A stretch of 64,000 nucleotides of DNA from Candidatus Babeliales bacterium (GCA_050250855.1 JBFWNW010000001.1:409357-473356), one strand, 5' to 3'; shown: positions 4,940 to 22,477, numbered from the stretch's first letter. Notes: generated by a model from the letters alone, not told the origin. Numbers and translations: made by a program.

Positions 4940-5116
4940 AAGAACCCTTTTTTTGTTAAAAATGTTAAAAGAAATGTCTCTTGGCAAGCAAGCCTATGTC
5001 AATTGACAGTTTTGTCAATAGTAAGAAAATCAGATAAAAATTCTTGTGTCTTTTTGAATGAGTGTGTACGCTTTTTGGTGAATTGCTTATCGCAAATTAA
5101 AAACGTTTACATGTTT

Positions 5117-5196
5117 ATACTTCGACTCGAGTTGAAACTCTCGCTCAGTATGACTGGTTTCTCGGTCTCCCTGAGCGAACAGAGTGAGTCGAAGGG
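5117..5196 (+). repeat. Palindromic intergenic repeat; same family as 512-592
   Basis: Near-identical to the reverse complement of 512-592. When read through, it translates to the low-complexity LSLSMTGFSVSLSEQSESKG. Confidence 0.8.
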
Positions 5197-5224
5197 TAAA
5201 TATAATTTTAAAAGGAGTTTTTTT

Positions 5225-6670
5225 ATGACTATGTCTAACCGTGTTCTTATATTTTGTGCATTAGCCGCGGCGCTGTCATTGGGTATTGTAGGTATAGTCA
5301 AAACTAAAAAAACAAAAGCTGAAAAATATGCTTTAAAGGCCGTTAAGAGTTTGAAAAATGTAGTACCACTTCTTATTAGTGGTTCTGGGGCTGCAGGAGG
5401 GTCGGCTGCTTTGTATGGATCGCGCTCTGACTTAAAAACTATTGTCATTGGGGGTGAAAAGCCAGGCGGTGCGCTGACAGAAACAAGTTATATTGAAAAT
5501 TGGCCGGGAAGAGTAAAAGTACTCGGTTCAAAATTAATGGATGATCTGCATGAACAAGCAAAATCGTTTGGTGCAGAATTTTTAAATGATACCGTTTTAT
5601 CTATAGATTGTTCTGAGTGGCCATATACGGTAAAAACTGAAGGTGGTTTGACGTTGCGTGTACTTGCGCTTATTTATGCAACCGGTTCTACGCCGCGCAC
5701 ACTTGGTATTCCGGGAGAAAAAGAGTTTTGGGGCAGAGGTGTTACAACCTGCGCTATTTGCGATGCTCCTTTTTGCAAAGGATATGATGTTGCCGTTGTT
5801 GGTGGTGGCGATACCGCAGCTGAAGAAGCGATGCAACTTGCTCCGTATGCAAAACATATTACTATTTTAGTAAGAGGTTCTGCTATGCGCGCTAGCGCTG
5901 CAATGCAGGAACGCTTGAAAGAGTATCCTAATATTGCTATTGCATATCATAAAGAAGTTAAAAAAATTAATGGCACTGATGGTCATGTTAGTTCAATTGA
6001 CGTTTTGGATAACCAAAGTAATACAATGCAAACAATGCCAATACGAGGATTCTTTTTGGCAATAGGTCATGATCCCAATGTTGCTTTAGTAAAAGATTGT
6101 GTAGCGCTTGATAAAGAAGGATATGTTGCATTGGATAGCAGATCACAACGCACGTCAGTTCCTTTCATATATGCAGCAGGAGATGTCGCCGATAAACATT
6201 ACAAGCAAGCGGGCGTTGCAGCAGGAGATGCTATAAAAGCGGCTCTGGATGCATTGGCAGATTTGCAAGAGCTTGGTTATTCAACTAAATTTGCCAAAAG
6301 TATTGAAAAGAATTTCTTTAGCCCGTCACAGGCAGAAGCAAAAGAGGTAGCATTAGTTTCTTCCGTCAGTGAATTTGAAAAGATAATGATGAGCTCAGAT
6401 GCGCCAGTGATACTGGACTTTTTTGCTGAATATTGTCCAAGCTGCATGCGCATGATTCCGGTTGTAGAATCGGTTGCTTTTGAACTTGGCAACGATGCTT
6501 CTTTTTATAAAGCTGATATGGAACAGGCGCAAGAGCTTGCTCGTACATATAATGTTGAAAGCATTCCAACTCTTTTAGTGTTCAAAAAAGGAAAATTAGT
6601 CGGCCGCTATACGGAGGCTATGAATAAAAGTCAGCTTCATGAAACGGCAAAAAAACATATTGAAAATTAA
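5225..6670 (+). CDS. trxB: Thioredoxin reductase fused to a C-terminal thioredoxin domain, with an N-terminal hydrophobic anchor
   Basis: FAD motif GSGAAGGSAA, redox CAIC, NADPH motif VVGGGDTAAEEA, and AGDV. The C-terminal Trx fold has an active site YCPSC. I moved the start to ATG 5225 (aaaaggag RBS) because 5003-5224 reads through repeat 5117-5196. Confidence 0.85.
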   Translation: MTMSNRVLIFCALAAALSLGIVGIVKTKKTKAEKYALKAVKSLKNVVPLLISGSGAAGGSAALYGSRSDLKTIVIGGEKPGGALTETSYIENWPGRVKVLGSKLMDDLHEQAKSFGAEFLNDTVLSIDCSEWPYTVKTEGGLTLRVLALIYATGSTPRTLGIPGEKEFWGRGVTTCAICDAPFCKGYDVAVVGGGDTAAEEAMQLAPYAKHITILVRGSAMRASAAMQERLKEYPNIAIAYHKEVKKINGTDGHVSSIDVLDNQSNTMQTMPIRGFFLAIGHDPNVALVKDCVALDKEGYVALDSRSQRTSVPFIYAAGDVADKHYKQAGVAAGDAIKAALDALADLQELGYSTKFAKSIEKNFFSPSQAEAKEVALVSSVSEFEKIMMSSDAPVILDFFAEYCPSCMRMIPVVESVAFELGNDASFYKADMEQAQELARTYNVESIPTLLVFKKGKLVGRYTEAMNKSQLHETAKKHIEN

Positions 6671-6691: not shown

Positions 6692-7768
6692 ATGAAGCAA
6701 CTTGGTTTACTTCTTATTATTTTAGCGTTGCATACGGTGGGCGTGAGCTTAAGCATGCAGCAGCCCAAGCCTTGGCGCAGCAAAAGCTATGGTAAAATTC
6801 TAAAAAAAGTCGGTATAGATGGGGTTAGAGAGTTCGTTAATCAAGGCTGGGATGTTAACGAAAGGGATATTGATGGCGATTCAGTTCTTACGCATGCGCT
6901 TGGTTATGCACGAACTTTTAAATATTTGATTGAGAATGGTGCGAATATACATCAAAAGACTGATAAGCGTTATGGTCGTTATAATCATGAAGGAGAAACC
7001 TTTCTTCATCAAGCCGCTGAGTCTGCCTATTCTGATACGGTCCTCATACTTATTCAAGCAGGCGCTGATGTCAATGCGCTTACAAAGAAGGGAGAGACAC
7101 CCCTTTTTTATGCTTGTAATGGCATGTATGAAGATGAAAATCATGATGAGGATAGAATTAAGACTGTGCAGCGATTGCTTGCGCATAGTGCAGACGTAAA
7201 CAAAAGGCCTGATTGTGGCAGTTCTGTGCTCCATAAACTGACTGGTGAATGGGGTAGAGGGGTAAAGGTAACTGAGTTACTTCTTGCTTATGGTGCGGAT
7301 GTAGGTCTGGTAGATAATAAAGGCAAAACATGTCTATCTTATGCTGTGGGTCGGGTGTATGGATTATACATGAAATATAGTTTGGCTCATAGTAATGTTG
7401 ATTTAAAAAAAATGGAAGAGGATATTGGCCGGGGCTTTTTGATCACGCTTGAAGGCGGCATGCAATCTCTTATGAATAATACAGCTTCTAAAATGCGCGC
7501 ATCGTATTTTTTACGCGATACTCTTACAGAGCTTTGTTTAATACGTGAACATGGCGGCGATTCTGTTTTTGGAAAAGATTTTTTGCCGCTTGATATGTTC
7601 AAACTTATTTTGAAAGAGACAAAAGATCAAAGTCAATCAACAAAAGTTTCTTTGCGCCCATCAGCAAGGCGCATACAAGAGATTATTACTTTTTTTAAAG
7701 ATGAAGGTTTTGATCAAAGAGATCCCGGTTTTATGCAGCAGTTAGAAGAATATAAAAATAAACAATAA
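6692..7768 (+). CDS. Secreted ankyrin-repeat protein with conserved C-terminal F-box/PRANC-like module (paralog 1 of 6)
   Basis: Has a signal peptide (LLIILALHTVGVSLS) and ANK repeats (GANIH..TFLHQAAESAYSDTVLILIQAGADVN). The C-terminal block is LCLIREHGGDSVFGKDFLPLDMFKLIL...RIQEIITFFKDEGFDQRDPGFMQQLEEYKNKQ. Confidence 0.8.
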   Translation: MKQLGLLLIILALHTVGVSLSMQQPKPWRSKSYGKILKKVGIDGVREFVNQGWDVNERDIDGDSVLTHALGYARTFKYLIENGANIHQKTDKRYGRYNHEGETFLHQAAESAYSDTVLILIQAGADVNALTKKGETPLFYACNGMYEDENHDEDRIKTVQRLLAHSADVNKRPDCGSSVLHKLTGEWGRGVKVTELLLAYGADVGLVDNKGKTCLSYAVGRVYGLYMKYSLAHSNVDLKKMEEDIGRGFLITLEGGMQSLMNNTASKMRASYFLRDTLTELCLIREHGGDSVFGKDFLPLDMFKLILKETKDQSQSTKVSLRPSARRIQEIITFFKDEGFDQRDPGFMQQLEEYKNKQ

Positions 7769-7778
7769 GAGAAAGAGC

Positions 7779-8909
7779 ATGATGTATATAAAACAGCGTG
7801 GTTTACTTTTTATTTTGGCGTTGCATACGGTGGGCGTGAGCTTAAGCATGCAGCAGCAACCTTGGCCTTGCAAAAATTATTATAAAGCTCTCAAAGATGC
7901 CAGCGTAAAAACGATTGCCGACTGGCTTAAACAGGGCTGGGACATGAAGCAAAAGGATGAAACGGGCTATTCAGTTCTTTGGCGTGTACTAAATCGCCCT
8001 GATATGATTACCTTTTTGATTGAGCAGGGTGCTGATATACACGAACGTGATCATATGGGAAAAACCTTTCTTCATGAAGCTGCTTGGCAGGGTTGTCCGG
8101 AGGTTGTTGAGCTTCTTATTGCAAACGGTATTGAGGTAAACGTACTTACTAGTAATGGAACTACGCCACTTCTTGATGCTTGTGAGCGAACGCATGCAAA
8201 GGAGGAGGGTGATACGAGATTTAAGATTGCCCAACAATTGCTTGCTCATGGTGCAGATGTAAACAAAAGGCCTAATTATGGCTATTCAGCGCTCCATAAA
8301 TTGGCTTACAGTGGTTTGACAAAGGTAGCTGGGTTACTTCTTGCTCATGGTGCAGATGTGAGTTATGTACATACCAGTCAAGATTCCAGATGGCCCAGTG
8401 CAGGATCCATGCTGCGTCGTGCTCTGCAGGAAGGAAACAATGACATTGCTCATTTATATATACAGTATAGTTTTGCTCATAATAATGTTGATTTAAAAGA
8501 AATGAGAGAGGATGTTTCTTGCGGGTTTATGGATCGAAATAGAAAATTTTTTTCTGGGAATGATGTTTCTGCTTGCTCTCTGCACATGCTCAAAGAGGGC
8601 ATGAAATCTCTTATGAATGGTACAGATTGTAAATTGCATGCAACATGTTTTTTAGGCGACATGCTTACAAAGTTTTGTTTAATGCGTGAGCATTGTGAAG
8701 ATTCTGTTTTTGATAAAGATTATTTGCCGCTTGATATGTTCAAACTTATTTTGCAAGAGGTAAAAGATCAAAGTTCACTAACAGAAGTTCTTTTGCGTCC
8801 ATCACGAAAGCGCATACAAGAGATTATTACTTTTTTTAAAGATGAAGGCTTTGATCAAAGTGATCCTGATTTTATGCAGCAGTTAGAAGAATATAAAAAC
8901 AAACAATAA
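7779..8909 (+). CDS. Secreted ankyrin-repeat protein, paralog 2
   Basis: Same architecture as paralog 1. ANK repeat GADIHERDHMGKTFLHEAAWQGCPEVVELLIANGIEVN; C-terminal DYLPLDMFKLILQE...DPDFMQQLEEYKNKQ. Confidence 0.8.
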   Translation: MMYIKQRGLLFILALHTVGVSLSMQQQPWPCKNYYKALKDASVKTIADWLKQGWDMKQKDETGYSVLWRVLNRPDMITFLIEQGADIHERDHMGKTFLHEAAWQGCPEVVELLIANGIEVNVLTSNGTTPLLDACERTHAKEEGDTRFKIAQQLLAHGADVNKRPNYGYSALHKLAYSGLTKVAGLLLAHGADVSYVHTSQDSRWPSAGSMLRRALQEGNNDIAHLYIQYSFAHNNVDLKEMREDVSCGFMDRNRKFFSGNDVSACSLHMLKEGMKSLMNGTDCKLHATCFLGDMLTKFCLMREHCEDSVFDKDYLPLDMFKLILQEVKDQSSLTEVLLRPSRKRIQEIITFFKDEGFDQSDPDFMQQLEEYKNKQ

Positions 8910-8920
8910 GAGAGAGCATA

Positions 8921-10027
8921 ATGTACAGAAAACAGCGTTGGTTATTTTTTATTTTAGCGGTGCATACAGTGGCTGTGAGCTTAAGTATGCAGCATCCTTG
9001 GGATTGCAATAGCTATTATGATGCTCTCAAAGATGCAAATGAAAAAACGATTACCGAATGGCTGGAGAATGGATGGGACATTAACCAAAAGGATAAAAGA
9101 GGCTATTCTGTTCTTCGGTCTGTAATTCGGCGTCCTGATATGCTTACATTTTTGATTGAGAAGGGTGCTGATATACATGAACGGGATGATAAGGGAGAAA
9201 CCCTTCTACACAAAGCTGCTTGGCATGGCTGTCCGGAGGTTGTAGAGATTGTTATTGCAAACGGTATTGAAGTAAATGCACTTTCTCATGATGGAACTAC
9301 GCCACTTCTTTGTGCTTGTGAGCGAACGCACGTAGAAAAGCAGAAGGAGGAGAGATTTAAGATTGTACAAAAATTGCTTGCGCATGGTGCAGATGTAAAC
9401 AAAAGAAGTTGTTGTGGTAGATCAGTGCTTCACGAGCTGGCTTCTAAAGATTTAGTAGATATAGCTAAATTGGTTCTTGCTTATGGTGCGGATGTAAGCC
9501 AGATAGATAATAAAGGTAAAACCTGCCTATCTTGTGTTGCGAGGAATAACGTAAAAATGGCTCATTTATACATCAAGTATAGCTTGGCTCATAGTAACGT
9601 TGACTTAAAAAAATTGAGAGAGGATGGTTCTGGCTTTCTGCATAAATATATTGGATCGCAACCAGCGCTATCTCCCGAAAGTATTTTTTTCTGTTCTCTT
9701 CCAATGCTCAGAGAGCAAATGCAATCCGTTATGAATAATACAGATTCTAAAATGCGGGCATCGTATTTTTTATGCGATACACTTACAGAGCTTTGTTTAA
9801 TACGTGAACATGGCGGCGATTCTTTTTTTGGAAAGGATTTTTTGCCGCTTGATATGTTCAAGCTTATTTTGCAAGAAGCTCGCACCATAAGTCAATCAAC
9901 AGAAGTTCCATTGCGTCCATCGCTAAAGCGCATACAAGAGATTATTACTTTTTTTAAAGATGAAGGCTTTGATCAAAGTGATCCCGATTTTATGCAGCAG
10001 TTAGAAGAATATAAAAATAAACAATAA
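8921..10027 (+). CDS. Secreted ankyrin-repeat protein, paralog 3
   Basis: Same architecture. The C-terminal ~60 codons are nearly identical at the DNA level to paralogs 1 and 2. Confidence 0.8.
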   Translation: MYRKQRWLFFILAVHTVAVSLSMQHPWDCNSYYDALKDANEKTITEWLENGWDINQKDKRGYSVLRSVIRRPDMLTFLIEKGADIHERDDKGETLLHKAAWHGCPEVVEIVIANGIEVNALSHDGTTPLLCACERTHVEKQKEERFKIVQKLLAHGADVNKRSCCGRSVLHELASKDLVDIAKLVLAYGADVSQIDNKGKTCLSCVARNNVKMAHLYIKYSLAHSNVDLKKLREDGSGFLHKYIGSQPALSPESIFFCSLPMLREQMQSVMNNTDSKMRASYFLCDTLTELCLIREHGGDSFFGKDFLPLDMFKLILQEARTISQSTEVPLRPSLKRIQEIITFFKDEGFDQSDPDFMQQLEEYKNKQ

Positions 10028-10040
10028 GAGAGAAGGCGTG

Positions 10041-11144
10041 ATGTACAGAAAACGGCGTGGTTTAGTTTTTATTTTAGCGTTGCATGCGGTGAGCGCGAGC
10101 TTGGGGATGCAGCCTCCAAAAAGCTATTATGATGCTCTAAAAGATGCCAGTATAGAAACGATTGATAAGTGGCTTGAACAAGGCTGGGATATTAAGCAAA
10201 AGGATCAAAGAGGTTTTTCAGTTTTTTCGTCTGTACTAAATCGCCATGATATGGTTACCTTTTTGATTGAGAAGGGTGCTGATATACATGAACGTGATCA
10301 TAGGGGAGAAACCCTTCTTCATAGAACTGCCTGGGAGGGCTGTTCGGAGGTTGTTGAGATTCTTATTGCAAGAGGTATTCAGGTAAATGCACTTTCTCAT
10401 GATGGAACTACGCCACTTCTTTGTGCTTGTGAGCGAACGCATGCTAAAGAGCAGAATGAAGAAAGATTTAAGATTGTACAAAAATTGCTTGCGCATGGTG
10501 CAGACGTAAACAAAAGGCCTAATTATGGCAGTTCAGTGCTCTATAAACTGGCATATAGTGGTTTGATAAAGGTAGCTGAGCTACTTCTTGCTCATGGTGC
10601 AGATGTGAGTCATGTACATTCCTGTGAAGGATCCATGCTGCGTCGTGCTCTGCAGGAAGGGAACAATGACATTGCTCATTTATACATACAGTATAGTTTT
10701 GCTCATAGTAACGCTGATTTAAAAAAAATGAGAGAGGATCTTTTTTGCGAGTTTATACGTAAATATGCAAAATTTTTTTCTGAGGAGGGCGCTTCTTCTT
10801 GTGCTCTGCAAATGCTCAAAGATGACATGAAATCTCTTATGAATAATACAGCTTCTAAAATGCGCGCATCGTATTTTTTACGCGATACGATTATAGAGCT
10901 TTGTTTAATGCGTGAGCATTGTGAAGATTCTGTTTTGAGAAAAGATTATTTGCCCCTTGATATGTTTGAGCTGATTTTGCAAGAAGCTCGCACCATAAGT
11001 CAAACAACAGAAGTTCCTTTGCGTCCATCGCCAAAGCGCATGCAAGAGATTATTCGCTTTTTTGATTCTGATGCTGAAGAGTGTCGTCAAAATAGTTCTA
11101 GTTTTATGCAGAAACTAGAAGGATATAAAAGTAAGGAACAGTAA
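10041..11144 (+). CDS. Secreted ankyrin-repeat protein, paralog 4
   Basis: Same architecture. The ORF track starts at GTG 10038; the ATG at 10041 matches the starts of the paralogs. The C-terminal tail has diverged (FMQKLEGYKSKEQ). Confidence 0.75.
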   Translation: MYRKRRGLVFILALHAVSASLGMQPPKSYYDALKDASIETIDKWLEQGWDIKQKDQRGFSVFSSVLNRHDMVTFLIEKGADIHERDHRGETLLHRTAWEGCSEVVEILIARGIQVNALSHDGTTPLLCACERTHAKEQNEERFKIVQKLLAHGADVNKRPNYGSSVLYKLAYSGLIKVAELLLAHGADVSHVHSCEGSMLRRALQEGNNDIAHLYIQYSFAHSNADLKKMREDLFCEFIRKYAKFFSEEGASSCALQMLKDDMKSLMNNTASKMRASYFLRDTIIELCLMREHCEDSVLRKDYLPLDMFELILQEARTISQTTEVPLRPSPKRMQEIIRFFDSDAEECRQNSSSFMQKLEGYKSKEQ

Positions 11145-12142
11145 TGCATAAGTACTATATTTTTTATTTAGCTGCAAGTCTGGTGAGCGTTAATTTTGGT
11201 ATGGATGAAACGTCAGAAAAACCAAAATCATTACTTGACGCGGCAGGGCAAGGAAGCTTGATGCACGTTCAAGAATTTTGTAACAATGGCGCTAATGTAA
11301 ATCAACGAGGTAAATATGGCCATACGCCCCTTGAAAAGGCTTTTTTGGGTAATCATCTAGATATCGCTCAATTTCTTATTGAAAATGGTGCTGATGTAAA
11401 TCAAAGCGGTCAATATTTTACCCCGCTATTTCAGGCCATTCAAAAAGATAGCTTAGATGCTGTAAAATTTCTTATTGCACAGGGTGCCAATGTAAATCAA
11501 CCATGTAATGACGATACAGGACTTCGCTTGGCAGCTGGAAGAGGCTGTTTAGATATCGTTCAATTTCTTGTTGCCAAAGGAGCTGAGGTAAACCCATTAC
11601 CTACTAAATATGGGAAGCAAACGCCACTTCTTTCTGCCTTAGAAAATGGGCATCTAGAAGTTGCTGCCTATTTGCTTGCGCATGGTGCAGATATAAAGAT
11701 CCCACTTGGAAAGGTAAAAGGGTTAATAGCTACTGAAAATTTAAAAAAGCTTCTACAGGAAGGTAAGTCAGCTATAGATCGTGAAAATTTTAAAAATGGG
11801 CTTAAAAATGAAGATTTGGATTATCATAAGGATGCAATCAATTCCTTAACAAAAAATCTAAAAGAACTAGCTGAAGAGTTTATTAATAATAAATTCTTTA
11901 TCCCACTTGAACAACAATCATTGCTCACCTTATGCTGTACGCGTGAGCTGTGTCAGAATTCTTTGTTTTATAAAGATTTCTTGCCGTCAGATATATTCAA
12001 GATCATTATTAAGCAGGCAGAGATATTAGCATTATCAAATGTGCAAGCAACGGAGTTAGTGAGCTTTTTTAGGGAGATTGAGTATGAGCAAACTGATCCT
12101 GATTTTATGCAGAAGTTAGAAGAATATAAGAACAAGAGATAA
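11144..12142 (+). CDS. Secreted ankyrin-repeat protein, paralog 5 (divergent)
   Basis: The ATG overlaps the previous stop. Contains ANK repeats (HTPLEKAFLGNHLDIAQFLIENGADVN). C-terminal DFLPSDIFKIIIKQ...DPDFMQKLEEYKNKR. Confidence 0.75.
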   Translation: MHKYYIFYLAASLVSVNFGMDETSEKPKSLLDAAGQGSLMHVQEFCNNGANVNQRGKYGHTPLEKAFLGNHLDIAQFLIENGADVNQSGQYFTPLFQAIQKDSLDAVKFLIAQGANVNQPCNDDTGLRLAAGRGCLDIVQFLVAKGAEVNPLPTKYGKQTPLLSALENGHLEVAAYLLAHGADIKIPLGKVKGLIATENLKKLLQEGKSAIDRENFKNGLKNEDLDYHKDAINSLTKNLKELAEEFINNKFFIPLEQQSLLTLCCTRELCQNSLFYKDFLPSDIFKIIIKQAEILALSNVQATELVSFFREIEYEQTDPDFMQKLEEYKNKR

Positions 12143-12144
12143 CT

Positions 12145-12906
12145 ATGAAGCTCTATATTTTTTGTTTTGTCATAAGTTTGGTGAGCGTTAACTTTGGAAT
12201 GGAAAGAAAACCAGGGCATTTTAGTTATGATGATTATCTTTTATTTGCAATTTCTGACGATTTAGTTAGAACTAGCAAGGTTATTCTTTTAGCGCAAAAA
12301 ATTGAGCCATATGAATTAATTCAAAGTCAGTTCATAGAAAAACCATCTCATATTACTTCGATAGACAAGTTTGATATTATCAAATTATTTATTGAGAAAG
12401 GCTCTCAAGCAAGCGAAACAGGACGCTTAGATCTCGTTAAATTTCTTATTGAAAAAGGCGCTCGAGTAAATCAATCACCTTCTAGACTTAGTCCTTTTAT
12501 TATGGCTTTGGAAAAAGGTTATTCAGATATTGCTGCATATTTACTTGTTCATGATGCAGATACAACAAGGCTTAAAGATTTAAAAGAAAATTATATAAAT
12601 ATTAAGCCATTGATAATAGAAACTCTTCAAAAAGCAGTAATCAGTATTATTGTAGGTAGTTTCTTCAACAAATTAGAACAACAGTCATTGCTTGCCTTGT
12701 GCCTTATTCGTGAATATTGCGATGATTCACCCTTTGGTAAAGATTATTTACCCCTTGATATGTTTAAAGAAATTAAAAAGCGGGCAGAGGCTTTATCGCT
12801 TTCCGTTTGGCAAACATTGGAATTAATAAGTTTTTTTAGGGAAATTGGTTGTGAACACAGTGATCCTGATTTTATGCAGAAACTAGAGCAGTATAAAGGT
12901 TTATAA
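12145..12906 (+). CDS. Short ankyrin-like protein, paralog 6 (reduced ANK region)
   Basis: 253 aa with ~2 degenerate ANK units. It retains DYLPLDMFKEIKKR...DPDFMQKLEQYKGL. Confidence 0.65.
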   Translation: MKLYIFCFVISLVSVNFGMERKPGHFSYDDYLLFAISDDLVRTSKVILLAQKIEPYELIQSQFIEKPSHITSIDKFDIIKLFIEKGSQASETGRLDLVKFLIEKGARVNQSPSRLSPFIMALEKGYSDIAAYLLVHDADTTRLKDLKENYINIKPLIIETLQKAVISIIVGSFFNKLEQQSLLALCLIREYCDDSPFGKDYLPLDMFKEIKKRAEALSLSVWQTLELISFFREIGCEHSDPDFMQKLEQYKGL

Positions 12907-13033
12907 AACAAAACTACTTTAAAAAAGCTTGAAAGTTCTTTTTCTTTTTATGTACTAATATATTTTATTGCAATCTGAAATTACTATTTGGTATTGTAAG
13001 AAGTGAATACGATTAGTAAAAAGGAAAAAGGCT

Positions 13034-14137
13034 ATGCTCTTTATAAAAAAACCTTATACATACGCTCTTTTTTTGCTCTGCGCCCTATGGAGCGGAGGAG
13101 TTTTTTTATTAAGAGCAGAATCGCAGGATTCTTTTGCTCCTCATATGCCGGGGACTGAAATTCTTACCGGAACAACGCAAGATTATCTTGATAAACAAGG
13201 TAAATATTTATATGGCGCTAAGCTTGAATATGTCGTTTTTCCCTCTCAGCAGGCGCATGATTCTGATAAAATCCTTCATCGTCATGGTATTTTGTATCTG
13301 AAGCCTGATGCGCGTGGCACTATACTCGTGTGCCACGGTTTTAGCTGTGATAAGTTTGATATAGCCTTTATTCGCCGCGTTTTATTTGCGCAATACAATG
13401 TAATGTTATTTGATTTTCGTGCCCATGGCGTTAACGTAGCGCATGATGATTGCTGTACGTTTGGTAAAGATGAAGCGCTTGATGTAATGGGTGCCGTTTC
13501 GTATATAAAGCAGCGAGCAGATATACAAAATCTACCCCTTATAGGGTACGGTTTTTCTATGGGAGCCGTTGCTGCTATTCAGGCACAAGCAACAGATTCT
13601 AGTTTATTTGATGCGCTTGTTCTTGATTGTCCTTATGACAAAAGTGAAAATGTTATTAAGCGAAGCTTAGAGCATCTTAACTTTACTGTTTTTGGCTATA
13701 CTTTTGAAATGCCAGGAAAACAGCTTCTTGAAAAATTTGCCTTTAATACCTATGTACAATCAGTACTTAAATTTCTTCTTAAAATAGTAGCGCGTCTTGA
13801 TGCCACCGCAACAAGAACGTTTATGTATCCGCTTAGTCCTGTTGATTCTATTAAAAAAATAGATATTCCTTGTTTTTTCATTCATTGCAAACATGATGAA
13901 AAAGTTCCGGTGCAAGCAGCAAAAGCGCTTTATGCAAATGCAGGAGGCTATAAACGGCTGTGGTTAACGGATGGGCGTCGCCATTTTGATTCGATTTTTT
14001 ATAATCCAGAAAAATATATTTATAAAGTAAATAAGTTTATTGATCACGTTTTAAATCAAGAGTTAGCACAGCGAGTGCAAAGTAAAGTATATATCGATAA
14101 TCGTAATAAGAGGAGAAGATATGAAGCGTATCTTTAG
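13034..14137 (+). CDS. Alpha/beta-fold hydrolase, secreted or membrane-anchored
   Basis: 367 aa with an N-terminal hydrophobic segment. The nucleophile elbow is GFSMGA, and there are downstream conserved D and H residues (CKHDEKVP; RRHFD). Confidence 0.6.
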   Translation: MLFIKKPYTYALFLLCALWSGGVFLLRAESQDSFAPHMPGTEILTGTTQDYLDKQGKYLYGAKLEYVVFPSQQAHDSDKILHRHGILYLKPDARGTILVCHGFSCDKFDIAFIRRVLFAQYNVMLFDFRAHGVNVAHDDCCTFGKDEALDVMGAVSYIKQRADIQNLPLIGYGFSMGAVAAIQAQATDSSLFDALVLDCPYDKSENVIKRSLEHLNFTVFGYTFEMPGKQLLEKFAFNTYVQSVLKFLLKIVARLDATATRTFMYPLSPVDSIKKIDIPCFFIHCKHDEKVPVQAAKALYANAGGYKRLWLTDGRRHFDSIFYNPEKYIYKVNKFIDHVLNQELAQRVQSKVYIDNRNKRRRYEAYL

Positions 14138-14825
14138 TATGAGCATATTACTGCTCATTGGAACATCATCATTATTTGCAAAATTTTATGAACCTATGAG
14201 TGATGCACAATTTTATAAGCAAATAGAGCGCCATCCATTTACCGTTGTTTTCTTTGTACCCTATGCAGAAAGTCCTGCTGATGAAAAAAAGCTTGATATG
14301 ATGGATGATGCTTTTGAGCGTTTGAGCAGAAGAGAGCGTTACAAAAAAACCGATGTTGCTTTTATTGTTATAGATTTAGCAGAACTTTCTGGGCTTGTTG
14401 CTGATTTTATGCTCAATATAAAAGTGCCAACCATGATGCTTTTTAAAGGTGGTAAAGTTGTCAAAAAAGCAGATGGTTCTATTTTAAAGCAAGAAGGCTT
14501 TCTTGATAAAACTGAAATACAAGAACTTATTGAAGAATATTTTGGGCAAGCATTGAACGATAGAATACGCCGTATGATTGATATAGCAAAAACACGTGAA
14601 CAAGAACGCCAGCGCTTAGCACAGCAAGAAGCGCAGGCACAAGCTCAGCAGCAAGAACAAGCAACTACGCAAGTGGAATATGTAACACAGCCAGCAACAA
14701 CCTATACAACGTATTCATATCCTCGCTATCGAAGATATTATGGACCACGATTTGGTGTAGGTTTAGGCTTTGGGCCATTCTGGGGCGGCGGCTGGCGAGG
14801 TAGAGGCTGGCGACGTCGTTGGTAA
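14121..14825 (+). CDS. Secreted protein with a thioredoxin-like N-terminal region (no CxxC), a Q-rich linker and a Gly/Trp/Arg-rich C-terminal tail
   Basis: Has a signal peptide and the RBS aagaggag. The tail reads YGPRFGVGLGFGPFWGGGWRGRGWRRRW. Confidence 0.5.
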   Translation: MKRIFSMSILLLIGTSSLFAKFYEPMSDAQFYKQIERHPFTVVFFVPYAESPADEKKLDMMDDAFERLSRRERYKKTDVAFIVIDLAELSGLVADFMLNIKVPTMMLFKGGKVVKKADGSILKQEGFLDKTEIQELIEEYFGQALNDRIRRMIDIAKTREQERQRLAQQEAQAQAQQQEQATTQVEYVTQPATTYTTYSYPRYRRYYGPRFGVGLGFGPFWGGGWRGRGWRRRW

Positions 14826-14852
14826 TATAAAAATTAAAAAAGGGGCGTTGTT

Positions 14853-15236
14853 ATGAATAAAAAAATTTTTGTGCTTGGATTATTATTGGGTGTTTCATTA
14901 CTCCATGCACGTTTATATATAACAGAAGATGAATCAGAATTCTATCAACGCCTTACGTGTCCTTCATGTACTCGCGCACAATCAGTGCCCTATGAAGCAT
15001 CGGTTAAAAATAATAATGGTTCAAGAACCTTAATTGCACGAATCACCGAAGATGGGCGTTGCTATAATGCATGTAGTTCTGAAGAATGTTGTTGCTGCAT
15101 TGATTATCGTCACCCGCGTGGTATGTATGGCTTTATGGGCTATCCATATGGTTATTGGCCAGCATTTGGTCAAGGCTTTGGTTTTGGTGGTTACCGAAGA
15201 CCGGGGTCAGATTTCGGCTTTAATTGGGGCTGGTAA
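14853..15236 (+). CDS. Small secreted Cys-containing protein with a Gly/aromatic-rich C-terminal tail
   Basis: 127 aa with a signal peptide. The tail reads YGFMGYPYGYWPAFGQGFGFGGYRRPGSDFGFNWGW. Confidence 0.5.
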   Translation: MNKKIFVLGLLLGVSLLHARLYITEDESEFYQRLTCPSCTRAQSVPYEASVKNNNGSRTLIARITEDGRCYNACSSEECCCCIDYRHPRGMYGFMGYPYGYWPAFGQGFGFGGYRRPGSDFGFNWGW

Positions 15237-15348
15237 GAATTTTTGTCCGATAATGCTTCGGCGTTGCTATGTAATAAAAAATTAGAGCAATTTTCTCCTT
15301 TGCGGTATACTTTCCTTATATGTTTTTTATTAATAAGGAAATATACGC

Positions 15349-16863
15349 ATGAATACCATTACCCTTTCTCATGAATCATTATTAGAAAGTAAAAAACAGG
15401 GTTGTGCATTGTTTGTAGAACAAGATGCCCTGAATACGCAAGAAATTAAAGATATAGCAAAAGCATATTTCCCCTCGTTAACAACCTATTTCAAAGCGCA
15501 TGATTTTACTGGTCAAGCAGGAAAAATAGTTGCATTGCCGGTTGCTGATGGCAAAGCAGTAACTATGATTTTTTTTGTTGGGCTTGGTGCACCAAAACAA
15601 AAATCGATTGATATTGAAACATTTCGTCGAGCATTAGGACTTTTAATAAAAACATTGCAACGACAAAAAATTGATAGTTGTTCATTGGTAACGCCAGAAG
15701 CATCATTATTTAGTGTTTCAAAAGAAACCTTAGCAAAAGAAGTTGCTATAATTTCTAATATGGCCGCGTATCATTTTGATGAATATATCACCAAAGAAGA
15801 TAGAAAAGTAAATCAGAATCTTGATCTTACCTGGATTGTAAAAGCAGCTGATGCAAAAGAGTACAAAAAGGGTTTAGAGGTTGGTTCTATTATTGCAAAA
15901 TCAATTAATAAAGTTCGTCATTGGATTGATTTACCACCAGTAGCATTAACACCTACCGAATTAGCAGGCAAAGCACAAAAGATTGCCAAAGAGCAGGGAT
16001 TAAAAGTTACTGTTTTTAGTGAGCCTGAAATTAAAAAAATGGGAATGGGTGGTCTGGCAGGAGTTTCTGCTGGTTCTGAACAAGATTGCAAATTTGTTAT
16101 TTTAGAATATAAAGCAAAAAAGAAAAATGCGCCGACTATTGCGTTAGTTGGTAAAGGAATTACGTTTGATTCTGGCGGCTTGAGTTTAAAACCAGCGCGC
16201 TACATGGAAACGATGAAAGAGGATATGTCAGGCGCTGCGGCAGTAATTGGCACGATGGAAATTCTTGCACAGTTGCAACCTGATGTGAACGTTTTGGGGA
16301 TTACACCACTTTCTGAAAATTTACCCAGTGGTAAAGCGACAAAGCCTGGCGATATTCTCACCTTTTATAATGGTATGACGGCAGAAGTAAAAAATACGGA
16401 TGCAGAAGGTCGTTTAATTTTAGCTGATGCGCTTTCATATGCGGTAAAACATTATAAACCTGATGTAATGATTGATATTGCAACATTAACGGGAGCTTGT
16501 GCGTATGCGCTTGGGCCATTCTTTACTGGCATAATGGGTAAACATCCAGAAGTTCTTCAAAAGATAAAAGATGCGGCCAAAAAATCTGGCGATTATGTTT
16601 GGGAACTTCCTTTTATTGATGACTATAAAGTTGCTATAAAATCTCCTGTTGCCGATATGTGCAATAGTGGTAACGATAAATATATGGCCGGTGCAATTAC
16701 CGCAGGATTCTTTTTGCAGAATTTTGTAGGCGAAACGCCATGGGCGCATTTAGATATTGCTGGTACTGCATTTGATGTTCCTGATATTAGTTATTATGGC
16801 GGCAGTGGTGCAACTGGTGTAGGTGTTCGCTTATTTGTGGAATTAGTACTTAATTGGCGCTAG
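15349..16863 (+). CDS. pepA: Leucyl aminopeptidase (M17)
   Basis: 504 aa. Contains the M17 signature NTDAEGRLILADAL, plus VGKGITFDSGG. Confidence 0.9.
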   Translation: MNTITLSHESLLESKKQGCALFVEQDALNTQEIKDIAKAYFPSLTTYFKAHDFTGQAGKIVALPVADGKAVTMIFFVGLGAPKQKSIDIETFRRALGLLIKTLQRQKIDSCSLVTPEASLFSVSKETLAKEVAIISNMAAYHFDEYITKEDRKVNQNLDLTWIVKAADAKEYKKGLEVGSIIAKSINKVRHWIDLPPVALTPTELAGKAQKIAKEQGLKVTVFSEPEIKKMGMGGLAGVSAGSEQDCKFVILEYKAKKKNAPTIALVGKGITFDSGGLSLKPARYMETMKEDMSGAAAVIGTMEILAQLQPDVNVLGITPLSENLPSGKATKPGDILTFYNGMTAEVKNTDAEGRLILADALSYAVKHYKPDVMIDIATLTGACAYALGPFFTGIMGKHPEVLQKIKDAAKKSGDYVWELPFIDDYKVAIKSPVADMCNSGNDKYMAGAITAGFFLQNFVGETPWAHLDIAGTAFDVPDISYYGGSGATGVGVRLFVELVLNWR

Positions 16864-16939
16864 TATTATTGACAAATATTGCAATGAATCTATAATAAGC
16901 CCACAGAGATAACCTTTTTATAGCTTAGGAGTATTTGCA

Positions 16940-17086
16940 ATGATGTTAAAGCAGCTAACATTTTTACTATTTCTTTTTTCTGCGACAACTTTTGTGTCAG
17001 CATACAATGGTGATCAAGGAGAGGTTATTGTAGTAATTGGTACTGGTAATGGTGGTGAGACTAAACAAACAAGTGTTGCGCCATAA
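16940..17086 (+). CDS. Possible 48-aa secreted peptide (below the ORF-track cutoff)
   Basis: An aggag RBS lies ~8 nt upstream. Translation: MMLKQLTFLLFLFSATTFVSAYNGDQGEVIVVIGTGNGGETKQTSVAP. Confidence 0.35.
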   Translation: MMLKQLTFLLFLFSATTFVSAYNGDQGEVIVVIGTGNGGETKQTSVAP

Positions 17087-17137
17087 TACATAGAATTATT
17101 ATCTATCGTTTTTATAAATACATTGAGGAAAAACAAC

Positions 17138-17749
17138 ATGGTTTCATATTCTCCTAAAAAACTGTTCTTTTTTATGATTTTTTCTGCATCATGCATGCAG
17201 GGTTCAGATCAATCCTTTGATGCTTTGAAGGAAAAAACTAAGACTAAATGGCGACACATACAATCTCAAGTTTATGAGTTTGCAGATACTGTTAAAGAAA
17301 AAGCTCCTGAATTTTTCAATACTATGAAAAACAAAGCTTTTGAGTTTAAAGATAAATATTTACCGCAGCAAGAAGCGCAACAATCTGAGTCTAGCGCTAT
17401 CAAAGAATCTGTGCCAGGAGCTGCAGCGACCCCTGCTGATGTTTTACCAGCTCAAGAGACAGCAGCGGCAAAAGAAGTTGCTATGTCTGATAACGCGGTG
17501 CAAACCATTCAAGGTCTTGAGCAAAATAAAGATGTAAAAGTTGCTTGGTTTTCAAAGCGCACGGCATTGTTTTTTGGCGCAGGTGCAGTAGCCCTTATTT
17601 CAGTTGGTGCGATTGTTTATATTCTTTATGAGGATGGTACGCTTACAAAACTCGCTGATGTAGTCAAAGAACATCCGGTCAAAACTGGTTTGGCGTGTTT
17701 AGCTACAGCACTTACTTTTTATGCAGGATATAGTTACTGCACGAAGTAA
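17138..17749 (+). CDS. Hypothetical protein with an N-terminal signal and a C-terminal membrane region
   Basis: The track ORF starts at TTG 17123. I prefer ATG 17138, which is preceded by gagga. C-terminal TM segments are present (ALFFGAGAVALISVGAIVYIL). Confidence 0.5.
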   Translation: MVSYSPKKLFFFMIFSASCMQGSDQSFDALKEKTKTKWRHIQSQVYEFADTVKEKAPEFFNTMKNKAFEFKDKYLPQQEAQQSESSAIKESVPGAAATPADVLPAQETAAAKEVAMSDNAVQTIQGLEQNKDVKVAWFSKRTALFFGAGAVALISVGAIVYILYEDGTLTKLADVVKEHPVKTGLACLATALTFYAGYSYCTK

Positions 17750-17771
17750 GTAGTTTACTCGAGAATTTTTT

Positions 17772-17806
17772 AAAGAGCTCTGGTTTTTCCAGGGCTCTTT
17801 TTTGTT
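17772..17806 (+). terminator. Rho-independent terminator after the 17138-17749 gene
   Basis: aaagagctctgg-ttttt-ccagggctcttt followed by tttgtttt. Confidence 0.6.
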
Positions 17807-17823
17807 TTATAGGATATTAATAA

Positions 17824-17996
17824 CCGTTCGAATGCTTCGACGAGCTCAGCACGAACGGAGTAAATATTTTACTACTGTATGACCTGCGCAGGTATTTGTG
17901 CAAAATTTGGGAATCTATCGAAGTATTAGTACGAACGGCTTTAATAGAAGTCTTTTTTCCCGTTCGCCCTGAGCCTGTCGAAGGGTGCGAACGAAG
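17824..17996. repeat. Cluster of palindromic repeat modules (ccgttcg...cgaacgg; cgttcgccctgagcctgtcgaagggtgcgaacg)
   Basis: Hairpin ccgttcgaatgcttcgacgagctcagcacgaacgg, and a second unit that shares ctgagcc.gtcgaaggg with 44930-44960. This cluster accounts for the spurious ORF 17817-18035. Confidence 0.75.
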
Positions 17997-18315
17997 TAAA
18001 GTAAATGCAAGAATCATATTAATCACTGTCGACATGAATCTTGTCCGATAACGCTCAGCTGATAATTTAATATAAAACCAATTTTTGGCGACTCATTTTC
18101 GAGGATTGAGCAGGGCGTTGAAGTTTATTTCTAAGCTCAATCCTCTTACCTGAGTCTTAGATGAAACGAGAAGCTTTTTTAAGAAAAGTTTTTGGGGCTA
18201 TAAAAAATATTGCAAACACAAAGCAGATAAGAGTAGGGTGATAGCATAAAAAAAGGAATATATGTCATATAAAATTATTATGTATCTTTTTTTAATAGTG
18301 AATATAGGAGAAGTA

Positions 18316-18912
18316 ATGGCGGAAAAAAAGGATGTATTAAAAACATATAGAAAAAGAAGGGATTTAACAATCTCTCCAGAACCAAAGGGTACGGTTGCTA
18401 AAAAAAGATCAAAAAAACCTATTTTTGTTATTCAAAAACATGCAGCATCACATTTGCATTACGATTTTCGTTTAGAAATTGATGGCATATTAGTTTCTTG
18501 GGCTGTGCCTAAAGGTCCATCAATGAATCCAAAAGAAAAACGCTTGGCCATGCGTACTGATGATCATCCTATGGAATATGCAAAATTTGAAGGCATGATT
18601 CCGGAAGGCACCTACGGTGCCGGTACTGTTATGATCTGGGACTATGGAACCTATAAGAACATAAAAAAGAAAAACGATAAACTAGTTCCTATGACAACGT
18701 GTCTCAAAAACGGGCAAATCGAAATCTTTTTATATGGAAAGAAACTAAAAGGAGGCTATGCTCTCCATAGATTTAAGCCAAAAGAAGATGCGTGGCTTTT
18801 AATAAAAATGAATGATGAGTATGCAAGTGCTCGACGCAATCCAACGAACACAGAAAATAAATCCGCACGTACCAATAGAACGATGAACGAAATTAAAAAG
18901 GAAGAATCATGA
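18316..18912 (+). CDS. LigD-type 3'-phosphoesterase domain protein (stand-alone)
   Basis: FVIQKHAASHLHYDFRLEIDGILVSWAVPKGPS is the LigD-PE signature. I prefer the start at ATG 18316 (aggag RBS) over 18262. Confidence 0.8.
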   Translation: MAEKKDVLKTYRKRRDLTISPEPKGTVAKKRSKKPIFVIQKHAASHLHYDFRLEIDGILVSWAVPKGPSMNPKEKRLAMRTDDHPMEYAKFEGMIPEGTYGAGTVMIWDYGTYKNIKKKNDKLVPMTTCLKNGQIEIFLYGKKLKGGYALHRFKPKEDAWLLIKMNDEYASARRNPTNTENKSARTNRTMNEIKKEES

Positions 18913-19859
18913 ACTCCTTAAAAGTAGGTCGTTATAAGGTAGCTATTACTCACCCTGAGCGTACACTTTTTCCAAAAAGTAAAATAACAAAAGAGGATTT
19001 AATTGAGTACTATAACGATATTGCTTCTTATATGGTACCGTACCTTAAAGATAGACCCTTGACTATGCACCGTTATCCCGAGGGAATTACTCAAGAAGGA
19101 TTTTACCAAAAGGATATGCCGGATTATTTCCCTGATTTTATTAAAGGAAAAACAATCCCTAAAAAAGAAGGTGGCAGCACCACCTACGTGGTCTGCAATA
19201 ATGCAGCAACGCTTGTATACTTAGCAAACCAGGCGTGCATTACACCCCACGTATGGTTAAGTAAGATCGATAAACTAAAATACCCCGACATGCTTATTTT
19301 TGATATGGACCCACCATCAACAACCAAGAAAAGTTTTAACCTTGTACGGCACGCGGCTCTTTCGCTCAAAAAAATTCTTGAAGATATTGGTTTGGTTCCT
19401 TTTGTAAAAACGACAGGATCTCGGGGCTTACATGTTGTTGTGCCCATAAAAAGAACGGCCACCTTTGATGCCGTACGTACCTGCGCACAAAAAATTGCGC
19501 AGATCTTAATTGATAATGACCCCAAACATTTTACGATGGAAATACGTAAAGAAAAAAGAGGCAATAAAGTATTTATTGATACGCTACGCAACGCGTACGC
19601 GCAAACGGCCGTTGCTCCTTATGCGGTGCGCGCTAAAGAAAAGGCGCCCGTGGCAACCCCTATTTTTTGGGATGAAGTTGAAGATGCAACCCTTACTTCA
19701 CAGCGCTATAACATAGATAATATTTTTAACTATCTTAAAAAACATAAAGATCCTTGGAAGAATTTCTTTAAAAGTGCGCGGGATATAAAGAGTGCTTGTA
19801 AGAAATTAAAACGTTCGTATGGTTTCCAGCCTTCGTCAAGACTTCGGCGGACAGGCTAA
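18909..19859 (+). CDS. LigD-type polymerase/primase (AEP) domain protein (stand-alone)
   Basis: LIFDMDPP, VKTTGSRGLHVVVPI and FIDTLRNAYAQTAVAPYAVR match the LigD PolDom. The start overlaps the upstream stop (ATGA). The last ~16 codons come from a repeat element. Confidence 0.8.
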   Translation: MNSLKVGRYKVAITHPERTLFPKSKITKEDLIEYYNDIASYMVPYLKDRPLTMHRYPEGITQEGFYQKDMPDYFPDFIKGKTIPKKEGGSTTYVVCNNAATLVYLANQACITPHVWLSKIDKLKYPDMLIFDMDPPSTTKKSFNLVRHAALSLKKILEDIGLVPFVKTTGSRGLHVVVPIKRTATFDAVRTCAQKIAQILIDNDPKHFTMEIRKEKRGNKVFIDTLRNAYAQTAVAPYAVRAKEKAPVATPIFWDEVEDATLTSQRYNIDNIFNYLKKHKDPWKNFFKSARDIKSACKKLKRSYGFQPSSRLRRTG

Positions 19860-19943: not shown

Positions 19944-19970
19944 ATTTTAGTTGAATTTATAATGGATCCT

Positions 19971-21083: not shown

Positions 21084-21136
21084 AAGCTCTCCCGTTTTTC
21101 TTACCTTACTCCAGGAGGCCGAGAGCTGTCAAAAGT

Positions 21137-22440: not shown

Positions 22441-22477
22441 AATAGAGAGCTTTGAATACTTTCTTTTAGAGAGAATG

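Follow-up and report, generated by a model that had tools for sequence, protein, structure and literature searches.

Dependentiae are widespread obligate protist parasites, and much of their genome encodes ANK proteins of unknown function. The passages of PMC6561590 that deal with these proteins describe them as numerous in the phylum and regard them as host-manipulating effectors; Chromulinavorax destructans is credited there with 98 ANK proteins, 78% of them with signal peptides. No C-terminal module shared by such proteins is mentioned in the passages on ankyrin, F-box and signal peptide of PMC6561590 and PMC4776705. An F-box is a domain of 40-50 aa with three helices (PMC9414399), for which the minimal poxviral consensus is phi-P-x2-phi-x3-phi (PMC6232478).

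Layout and evolution of the array

The analysed window is a stretch of 64,000 nucleotides from the genome of a Babeliales bacterium (Dependentiae/TM6). Six ORFs lie back to back on the + strand at positions 6692-12906 (Table 1). They are separated, in order, by 10, 11, 10, -1 and 2 nt, copy 5 starting on the last nucleotide of the copy 4 stop codon, and the original prediction of six tightly spaced genes on one strand was thus correct. The spacers contain GAGA-rich, Shine-Dalgarno-like sequence, and no terminator-like hairpins were found between the array genes. The six genes are probably co-transcribed. The start of copy 4 is more likely the ATG at 10041 than the GTG at 10038, and the gene called in assembly L001 encodes 367 aa. 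The window also contains genes for IleRS, DnaB and TolB.

Table 1. Genes, core motifs and repeated junction of the array (window coordinates)
Feature	Position	Strand	Description
Copy 1	6692..7768	+	358 aa; signal-peptide-like N-terminus, ANK repeats, C-terminal block; ANK Pfam 3.4e-22; identical to homologue P0002
Copy 2	7779..8909	+	376 aa; ORF and ANK Pfam match; present also in assembly L001
Copy 3	8921..10027	+	368 aa; ORF and ANK Pfam match; one residue apart from homologue P0001
Copy 4	10038..11144	+	368 aa from GTG start; ORF and ANK Pfam match
Copy 5	11144..12142	+	332 aa; divergent subclade; best ANK score; equals homologue P0004
Copy 6	12145..12906	+	253 aa; few ANK repeats, intact predicted signal peptide and C-terminal block; equals homologue P0003
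Core motif, copy 1 (DTLTELCLIREHGGDSVFGKDFLPLDMFKLILKE)	7517..7618	+	family-specific tail 7619-7765
Core motif, copy 2	8658..8759	+	tail 8760-8906
Core motif, copy 3	9776..9877	+	tail 9878-10024
Core motif, copy 4	10884..10985	+	tail 10986-11141
Core motif, copy 5	11915..12016	+	tail 12017-12139
Core motif, copy 6	12682..12783	+	tail 12784-12903
Homogenised junction unit	7630..7854	+	copy 1 3' tail, 10-nt GAGA-rich spacer, copy 2 signal-peptide region; from repeat analysis

The region 7743-24137, which starts at the 3' end of copy 1 and includes copies 2-6, is present with 99.988% identity in one independent assembly, and the region 10907-17801, which begins in the 3' end of copy 4 and takes in copies 5 and 6, is present with 100% identity in another. 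Copy 1 and its junction with copy 2 are found only in the window's own assembly, as the assembly that matches from 7743 onward breaks at that position. Therefore the copy 1 part of the mosaic signal described below could be an assembly chimera.

All six N-termini have a K/R-containing start and a 12-residue hydrophobic stretch (Kyte-Doolittle hydropathy 1.9-2.5), followed by SLS/MQ or NFG/ME, where small residues precede a plausible cleavage site. By hydropathy and residue pattern, each of them looks like a Sec signal peptide, as had been predicted. The six proteins match Pfam ANK families above gathering scores (E 4.3e-39 to 3.9e-06, copy 5 being the best at 4.3e-39). They have two to five ANK repeats each, and the variation in repeat number anticipated in the original prediction is real.

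Copies 1-3 were expected to have nearly identical termini and differing ANK cores at the DNA level, and segment identities agree with this. The last ~80-90 nt are 94-98% identical among these copies, and a 52-nt signal-peptide segment is identical to that of copy 1 at 96% (copy 2) and 85% (copy 3). The ANK core of copy 1 is 52-69% identical to those of copies 2 and 3, and copy 2 is 77-85% identical to copy 3 in this region. The tail of copy 4 is the most diverged among copies 1-4. The junction unit is repeated at 9889-10113 (88% identity) and at 8771-8995 (68%). Among copies 1-3, dS is 0.18-0.21 in the tail versus 0.47-0.62 in the ANK core, and incompatible sites are clustered (27 runs observed versus 47.6 +/- 3.9 expected, p<1e-4). 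In sequence comparison, the mosaic identity and the clustered incompatible sites together show ectopic recombination among copies 1-4. The clustering and the low synonymous divergence of the tails support the proposed diversification by duplication and gene conversion or ectopic recombination.

The last two copies had been described as progressively degraded, and this description does not hold. Copies 5 and 6 are intact ORFs, unchanged in independent assemblies, and copy 5 is the one with the best ANK score. Their C-terminal block is under purifying selection: between the two copies dN is 0.26-0.35, dS is ~2.7 (saturated), and dN/dS is about 0.1. They form a separate subclade, nearer to the second array of the same genome.

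The C-terminal block and its core motif

The six proteins share a C-terminal block in which 23 columns are invariant (over the last ~100 aa), and the consensus previously proposed for it recurs in all six copies. The block follows a helical linker and is predicted to be all-helical, with a length of about 85-105 residues. It opens with a core motif of 34 residues, xLxxLC[CL]IRE[YH]xxDSLFxKD[YF]LPLDMFKxIxKE, for which modelling predicts a helix-loop-helix. The AF2 model of the block (secondary structure predicted on copy 6) has moderate confidence (pLDDT 75.8, pTM 0.40), and a Foldseek search with this weak model gave no match below E 4.8.

An exhaustive search with a profile, covering 1.84 billion representatives, yielded 40 matches: nine to the whole block, about 29 to the core motif alone, and two spurious repeat proteins. 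All nine carriers of the whole block come from this one Babeliales organism; the source name of homologues P0001, P0004, P0045 and P0047 is Candidatus Babeliales bacterium. A second tandem array, of five genes with the same architecture, lies elsewhere in the same genome, and the block is common to 11 ANK paralogs with predicted export in the two arrays.

The motif family is rare. Clustered at 50% identity it comprises about 38 groups, and the majority of its members are from short metagenomic contigs of uncertain origin. Beyond this organism the motif occurs in ANK proteins, in one RCC1-domain protein and in unannotated proteins. Two proteins of Legionella sp. W05-934-2 (WP_367607236.1 and WP_367607119.1) each contain two internal copies of the motif and have no Pfam domains. 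Motif-bearing ANK arrays sit on AT-rich, virus-like contigs, and on one such contig, with 28% GC, about seven ANK genes follow in succession, each ending in the motif. Other motif-bearing contigs are ORFan-rich and contain Z-alpha, dsRBD, RING, Ras/Arf, WW and UDG genes.

The unit that is kept in distant relatives extends from ~22 residues before the LP dipeptide to ~12 residues after it, and at least nine proteins among the 40 matches terminate 13-20 residues past LP. As the conserved unit is mostly upstream of LP and these proteins end soon after it, the LP helix closes the module and does not open it. The core motif is an autonomous, portable module.

Possible roles of the block

We give an even chance to the reading that this chromosomal tandem array is a bank of exported effectors, in which variable ANK cores are combined with a constant, novel docking module. 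The variable cores would bind different host proteins, whereas the constant block would dock all paralogs onto one host factor or site, the array working as an adaptor bank in the manner of poxviral ANK/PRANC, poxviral ANK/BC or cellular ASB proteins. Duplication and ectopic recombination (gene conversion) shape the array and keep the unit of 3' tail, spacer and signal-peptide region uniform while the ANK cores diverge, and the locus is a clear example of gene conversion keeping the termini of putative effectors alike alongside diverging binding surfaces. At the level of profiles, the block has no detectable relationship to the F-box, PRANC or SOCS/BC-box, and its core is shared with proteins of Legionella and with virus-like proteins, so that the block may be a new host-docking module. 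Sec export brings a protein to the periplasm, and a host-cytosolic partner is therefore an assumption.

One possibility, which we put forward tentatively and consider rather less probable than the effector bank itself, is that LCxIRE-DSLF-LPxDxF represents a new portable box for host docking, exchanged among protist parasites that are unrelated to one another (Dependentiae, Legionella and giant-virus-like elements). In function such a box would parallel the F-box, BC box and U-box, linking variable binding domains such as ANK and RCC1 to one conserved eukaryotic factor. The constant module of 11 ANK paralogs offers a concrete handle on what these proteins do. With the core also present in Legionella and in ANK arrays of virus-like contigs, a single peptide of 34 residues could serve as bait for the host factor on which these proteins would converge. 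A new host-hijacking route is a possible outcome, depending on which host factor the motif binds.

The block may instead serve the bacterium or virus, in sorting, export or recognition by a chaperone, in anchoring or oligomerisation, or by capping the ANK stack. All Babeliales members have a predicted signal peptide, so sorting to the envelope or to outer-membrane vesicles is conceivable, and the homogenisation of the tails says that they must stay alike and nothing on their role. However, the core motif is also present in proteins without a signal peptide, and in Legionella it lies mid-protein, twice per protein. It also follows an RCC1 propeller and occurs on virus-like contigs, which makes a shared export or capping role unlikely. 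The hhalign probability of the block against ANK repeats is 1%, and thus the block is no recognisable ANK cap. On balance, a role within the bacterium or virus seems unlikely.

The original prediction suggested that the block may be a divergent F-box or PRANC domain, with LPLDMFKLIL as helix 1 and the proteins acting as SCF substrate adaptors; two further helices would then complete the F-box, and host Skp1 would be bound. In favour of this, the block is C-terminal of the ANK repeats, as in PRANC proteins, and in the Babeliales family LP is followed by 51-61 residues, 52-61 in the window proteins, with three main predicted helices and a short one of 4 residues, about the size of an F-box. LP.D.F..I agrees with the minimal poxviral pattern in 37 of 40 motif segments and in all six window proteins, although the specificity of this pattern is low, its chance rate being about 0.6 per 350-aa protein by our own estimate. 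On the other hand, Pfam F-box (PF00646, PF12937) and PRANC (PF09372) families had no match in the six proteins at E<=1, and F-box, F-box-like and PRANC families had none at E<=10 in the isolated tails or the 40 motif segments. The same scan matched 10 of 10 reference F-boxes and the PRANC tail of Wolbachia phage WO (2.4e-08), so that the Pfam check of the last ~100 residues by which the prediction was to be judged was negative with positive controls. Against the F-box, hhalign gave the motif a probability of 0.2% and the 11-sequence block one of 0.1%, with only the LP.D region aligned, and the block against the phage WO PRANC tail had 0.05%; the alignments to F-box and PRANC spanned only 4-10 columns around LP. 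Foldseek matches of the weak model (pTM 0.40) included no F-box structure. Moreover, distant relatives conserve mainly the part before LP (the LCxIRE..DS segment), the helices after LP are not conserved outside this organism, and the proteins that stop 13-20 residues after LP, at least nine in number, have no space for F-box helices 2 and 3. We consider an F-box or PRANC identity quite improbable, given the negative Pfam and hhalign results and the position of LP at the end of the module. The adaptor bank suggested along with it is supported as far as the variable ANK core, the constant C-terminal module, duplication and gene conversion are concerned, and is not supported in its F-box identity.

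Slightly less probable still is a cryptic BC-box or SOCS-box-like element, in which xLxxLC would bind Elongin C and LPLD would be a degenerate Cullin box, making the proteins analogues of ASB and poxviral ANK/BC proteins. The layout is SOCS-like, with an L-x3-C helix, a linker of 10-15 residues and an LP-initiated helix, often then the C-terminus; [TSP]L-x3-[CSA], the first half of the BC pattern, occurs in 10 of 40 segments, and viral BC boxes are known to be truncated and difficult to detect (PMC6232478). The only columns aligned by hhalign pair SLxxLCxxR with SLQxLCR (E 0.015-0.054), 5-9 columns in all, and the probability against the SOCS box is 1-3%. The full BC pattern [TSP]-L-x3-[CSA]-x3-[AILMFVPG] (PMC6232478) is found in 0 of 40 segments, because its last position is occupied by the near-invariant Glu of 'RE', and the Cul5-box LPxP occurs in one of 40, the motif family having LPxD. 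Pfam SOCS_box (PF07525) matched 13 of 13 controls and none of the proteins, tails or 40 segments, and there were no ASB or SOCS structures among the Foldseek matches (AF2 query, pTM 0.40).

Comparison with known systems

The array resembles the ANK/PRANC genes of poxviruses, Wolbachia and Orientia in its N-terminal ANK repeats, conserved C-terminal tail and expansion by duplication into a multigene family; the LP-initiated helix fitting phi-P-x2-phi-x3-phi is a further likeness to the poxviral proteins. Unlike ANK/PRANC proteins, those of the array have no PRANC or F-box profile match, their conserved core is upstream of LP, and they have predicted Sec signal peptides. With Legionella AnkB and other eukaryote-like effectors they have in common an amoeba-parasitising bacterial source and the combination of ANK repeats with a small host-docking element, putative in the array. 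AnkB has a canonical N-terminal F-box, whereas the motif-bearing Legionella proteins have two internal motif copies and no Pfam domain.

In poxviral ANK/BC proteins (ECTV 010; PMC6232478) and cellular ASB proteins, as here, the ANK repeats precede a short helical element with L-x3-C at the C-terminus, and SOCS boxes share with the array motif a downstream LP-initiated helix near the C-terminus. In contrast to both, the BC pattern is absent from all 40 motif segments, LPxP is not the rule, and neither the SOCS_box profile nor profile-profile comparison gave a match. Closest by phylum are the ANK expansions of Babela massiliensis and Chromulinavorax destructans, which, in the relevant passages of PMC6561590 and PMC4776705, have the combination of signal peptide and ANK repeats that is predicted for the array, and the same presumed role in host manipulation. 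The array differs from these expansions in that its 11 paralogs have a common C-terminal module, the core of which recurs outside the phylum.

Organisation and evolution of the ankyrin array

The window is bacterial chromosome from the phylum Dependentiae. Identical or near-identical proteins carry the source name 'MAG: ... [Candidatus Babeliales bacterium]', and IleRS, DnaB, TolB, an FtsH-like AAA protein and a TrxB-Trx fusion are also encoded here. No RNA family from Rfam was found within it.

The original prediction described six genes for exported ankyrin (ANK) proteins with a common C-terminal block, and this observation is largely right. The six genes, W1 to W6, are plus-strand ORFs, all six products match Pfam ANK families (E-values from 4.3e-39 in W5 to 3.9e-06 in W6), and the C-terminal block with the predicted consensus is seen in the alignment of all six proteins. 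The N-termini have a K/R-containing start and a hydrophobic core followed by SLS/MQ or NFG/ME, a pattern compatible with Sec signal peptides.

According to the ORF listing, the successive intergenic spacers are 10, 11, 10, -1 and 2 nt. The three spacers of 10-11 nt read TAA-GAGAAAGAGC-ATG and similar, and are purine-rich and Shine-Dalgarno-like. No terminator-like hairpins were observed between the genes, and the counts of promoter-like and terminator-like signals in the array region are not above those in shuffled sequences, which makes co-transcription of W1-W6 plausible. As the upstream TrxB-Trx gene stops 21 nt before W1, the array may be co-transcribed with this gene as well.

Downstream of the array, two adjoining genes encode products with signal peptides and unusual Gly/Trp/Arg/Phe-rich C-terminal tails (…GFGPFWGGGWRGRGWRRRW and …GFGFGGYRRPGSDFGFNWGW); no Pfam family is on record for them in a related locus. 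Further downstream there is a LigD_N and LigD primase-polymerase gene pair, notable for a reduced parasite genome.

Coordinates of the ankyrin arrays, their neighbours and other loci with the core motif (positions of the window unless a contig handle, L, is given)
Feature	Location	Strand	Description
TrxB-Trx	5003-6670	+	thioredoxin reductase fused to C-terminal thioredoxin, hydrophobic N-terminal segment ahead
W1	6692-7768	+	ORF, 358 aa
W2	7779-8909	+	ORF, 376 aa
W3	8921-10027	+	ORF, 368 aa
W4	10038-11144	+	ORF, 368 aa; GTG start, ATG one codon later
W5	11144-12142	+	ORF, 332 aa
W6	12145-12906	+	ORF, 253 aa
Gly/Trp/Arg/Phe-rich tail gene	14121-14825	+	product with tail …GFGPFWGGGWRGRGWRRRW
Gly/Trp/Arg/Phe-rich tail gene	14853-15236	+	product with tail …GFGFGGYRRPGSDFGFNWGW
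One entry, two features	22478-24481; 18262-19859	-; +	listed first, fusion of a pentapeptide-repeat segment and a PafA-like alkaline phosphatase; listed second, LigD_N and LigD pair
Second ANK array	L085 1-3165; L091 1-2200		GCA_050181685.1 JBFXCY010000121.1, JBFXCY010000099.1; Logan SRR27751816
WP_367607236.1	L089 10001-11605		Legionella sp. W05-934-2, 534 aa
WP_367607119.1	L094 10001-11476		Legionella sp. W05-934-2, 491 aa
ANK genes of JACCDM011612545.1	L060 218-8213; L046 1-666		GC 28% over the 8.2-kb L060 stretch

The DNA identity along W1-W4 is mosaic. In sliding windows, the identity of W1 to W2 and W3 is 79-96% towards either end and falls to 52-69% within the ANK core; W2 and W4 share 88-94% in alignment columns 181-285, W3 and W4 about 90% in columns 121-180 and 92% in columns 361-390, and W1 and W3 96% in columns 331-360. 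The 79 informative sites of the W1-W4 quartet are split 26:42:11 over the three possible groupings and are strongly clustered along the genes, forming 27 runs where permutations give 47.6 +/- 3.9 (not one of 10,000 was as low). At synonymous sites the W1-W3 tails differ much less (0.18-0.21) than the ANK cores do (0.47-0.62). One repeat unit runs from the 3' tail through the spacer into the following signal-peptide region; its copies at 7630-7854 and 9889-10113 are 88% identical. Together these data show that the gene termini are homogenised by ectopic recombination or gene conversion, as had been proposed.

The ANK cores have dN/dS of 0.4-1.0 and are thus relaxed or diversifying. For the blocks of W5 and W6, dN is 0.26-0.35 at saturated dS (about 2.7), hence dN/dS is about 0.1 and the block is under selection. 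The two last copies had been described as progressively degraded. This does not hold: W5 has the best ANK score of the array, and the two intact ORFs recur without change in independent assemblies.

GCA_050181685.1 matches window positions 7743-24137 at 99.988% identity, and a Logan assembly matches 10907-17801 at 100%. The contig of the former stops at 7743, within the repeated tail of W1, so that the window's own assembly is the only source for W1 and the W1/W2 junction. The second ANK array of this organism is likewise divided between two short contigs. Homogenised tails evidently defeat short-read assemblers, and therefore copy numbers of such arrays in MAGs are probably underestimated.

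A portable core motif

When 1.84 billion representatives were searched exhaustively by HMMER, the six tails together produced 40 matches. The whole block is present in nine, all from the window's own organism: four are window genes, and the other five form the second tandem array. Two matches (P0009, P0029) are spurious low-complexity repeat proteins. The remaining matches, about 29, cover only profile positions ~12-60. The resulting core motif has 34 residues, xLxxLC[CL]IRE[YH]xxDSLFxKD[YF]LPLDMFKxIxKE, with R, E, S, L, P, D and F each conserved in at least 90%. The conserved stretch runs from about 22 residues upstream of the Leu-Pro pair (LP) of LPLDMF to about 12 downstream, and is modelled by AF2 as a helix, a loop of 10-12 residues and an LP-capped helix. 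Only this Babeliales family has the helices that follow LP in the window proteins (…IQEIITFFKDEGFDQSDPDFMQQLEEYKNKQ).

The motif family is rare. Neither Pfam nor NCBIfam contains a model of the motif or the tail, and literature searches for LPLDMF and CIREY strings returned only unrelated papers that do not mention it; the assembly and run accessions likewise appear in none of the papers searched. A word-index protein search gave no matches with the tail alone and two with the motif alignment; with full-length proteins it was swamped by generic ANK matches. Among 185,579 species representatives of bacteria and archaea, which do not include the window's species, a scan for DNA that could encode D[YF]LPLDMF found no genuine copy: all 33 matches were out of frame or without upstream context, as expected by chance. 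The same scan of viral contigs gave a single match, also due to chance. Only four of the 48 metagenome matches were real loci (L046, L060, L068 and L075).

The second array consists of five tandem genes (255, 190, 271, 322 and 266 aa), each encoding a signal peptide, ANK repeats and the block, and is followed by the MIOX, TspO and YchF genes. In P0038, the first of the five, the LP.D.F core is gone (…DSFSYDDFLYV…), an example of genuine decay.

Beyond the Babeliales, two hypothetical proteins of Legionella sp. W05-934-2, WP_367607236.1 and WP_367607119.1, contain two internal motif copies apiece and no Pfam domain. Their genes lie in ordinary chromosomal contexts (LeuRS, LptE, flagellar genes), and they are candidate Dot/Icm effectors using the motif. 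The motif also occurs at the C-terminus of an RCC1-domain protein, in small membrane proteins (P0011, P0026), and in ANK proteins at the extreme end or between repeats; it is portable across unrelated scaffolds and organisms. The 27-kb metagenomic contig JACCDM011612545.1 carries a run of about seven ANK genes lacking signal peptides, each ending in a degenerate motif copy, adjoining an AAA ATPase and a P-loop kinase-like gene; it resembles DNA of a giant virus or of some other AT-rich intracellular parasite. Other motif genes lie on gene-dense, ORFan-rich contigs (L086, L095 from GCA_034680565.1 JAXOUH010018292.1, and L096), where neighbours encode WW, Rv2179c-like exonuclease, dsRBD, Z-alpha, RING, MIP, Ras/Arf and UDG domains, a gene repertoire that recalls giant viruses. 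In the 171-aa metagenomic protein P0040 the Nudix-box 'REFEEDS' continues directly into a perfect copy of the motif's second half (…REFEEDSLFFQDYLPLDMFKLII…); the protein may be chimeric, or the two motifs may overlap by chance.

Comparison with known domains

In the original prediction LPLDMFKLIL was read as a possible first helix of a divergent F-box, and the array, if so, as a bank of SCF substrate adaptors with an F-box/PRANC-like tail. The idea of an adaptor bank is reasonable; the domain assignment found no support. Pfam hmmscan yielded no F-box, F-box-like, PRANC or SOCS_box match to the whole proteins (E<=1), to four isolated tails or to the 40 motif segments (both E<=10). The controls scored: 10 of 10 reference F-boxes matched PF12937/PF00646, 13 of 13 reference SOCS boxes matched PF07525, and the PRANC tail of a Wolbachia phage WO ANK protein matched PF09372 at 2.4e-08 and F-box weakly. 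Every member of the SOCS-box and F-box reference alignments was confirmed by Pfam before use.

In hhalign comparisons with the F-box, the motif gave 0.2% probability over 10 columns around LP.D..I, and the 11-sequence block 0.1% over four columns (LP.D). The block aligned with PRANC at 0.05% over seven columns. For the SOCS box the values were 1% for the motif (five columns, LxxLC) and 3% for the block (nine columns, SLxxLCxxR).

Truncated viral BC and F-boxes are known to evade profile methods (PMC6232478). Of the patterns in that study, the BC box [TSP]-L-x3-[CSA]-x3-[AILMFVPG] is present in none of the 40 segments, since its last position is a near-invariant Glu; the loose poxviral F-box pattern phi-P-x2-phi-x3-phi is present in 37, and LPxP in one. 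An F-box has three helices in 40-50 residues, and the truncated poxviral form still needs two (PMC9414399). At least nine proteins among the matches terminate 13-20 residues past LP, leaving space for one helix at most. These sequence-based tests lower the claim that the block is an F-box, PRANC or SOCS box; that it may work like one is compatible with them.

The AF2 model of the W6 tail from a 38-sequence alignment (pLDDT 75.8, pTM 0.40) has helices at residues 2-28, 38-50, 63-75, 80-92, 95-98 and 100-110. Foldseek with this model against PDB and BFVD found nothing below E 4.8, a weak negative because the tertiary packing is uncertain. In a full-length model of W1 from six sequences the tail pLDDT is below 50.

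Other identities are rejected. A C-terminal translocation signal, Dot/Icm-type or other, does not fit a motif that lies inside the Legionella proteins, twice in each, and occurs on virus-like contigs. A degenerate ANK repeat or cap is rejected, as hhalign gives 1% (motif, 13 columns) and the motif also occurs in proteins without ANK. Reading DYLPLDMF as a LIR, YxxPhi, clathrin-box or DxF short linear motif, as these are generally defined, is rejected as well: Tyr is not conserved, and the region is predicted to be helical with buried hydrophobics. LIR moreover excludes Pro at the position it occupies here. The sole resemblance in a PDB sequence-profile search, to residues ~262-288 of mouse NAIP5 (5yud_A, 6b5b_A, 7rav_A; YCNDSVFANEELRMDMFKDW, which we take to lie at the start of a BIR domain), is probably due to chance (E 0.25-0.43).

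A putative docking module

A constant module combined with interchangeable protein-binding scaffolds such as ANK and RCC1 is characteristic of adaptor proteins. The core motif is found in three mutually unrelated kinds of intracellular protist parasites, the virus-like contigs being classed by inference. Given both, the block most likely docks every paralog on a single conserved host factor or site, with Skp1 and Elongin C among the possible partners, and the ANK cores would pick different targets. With a 34-residue bait common to Babeliales, Legionella and virus-like elements, the question of this putative docking function is directly testable. The ANK proteins of Dependentiae usually have signal peptides and are considered effectors of host manipulation (PMC6561590, PMC4776705). 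The array would be a variant of the known theme of ANK repeats with a C-terminal docking module, and the module is novel in sequence.
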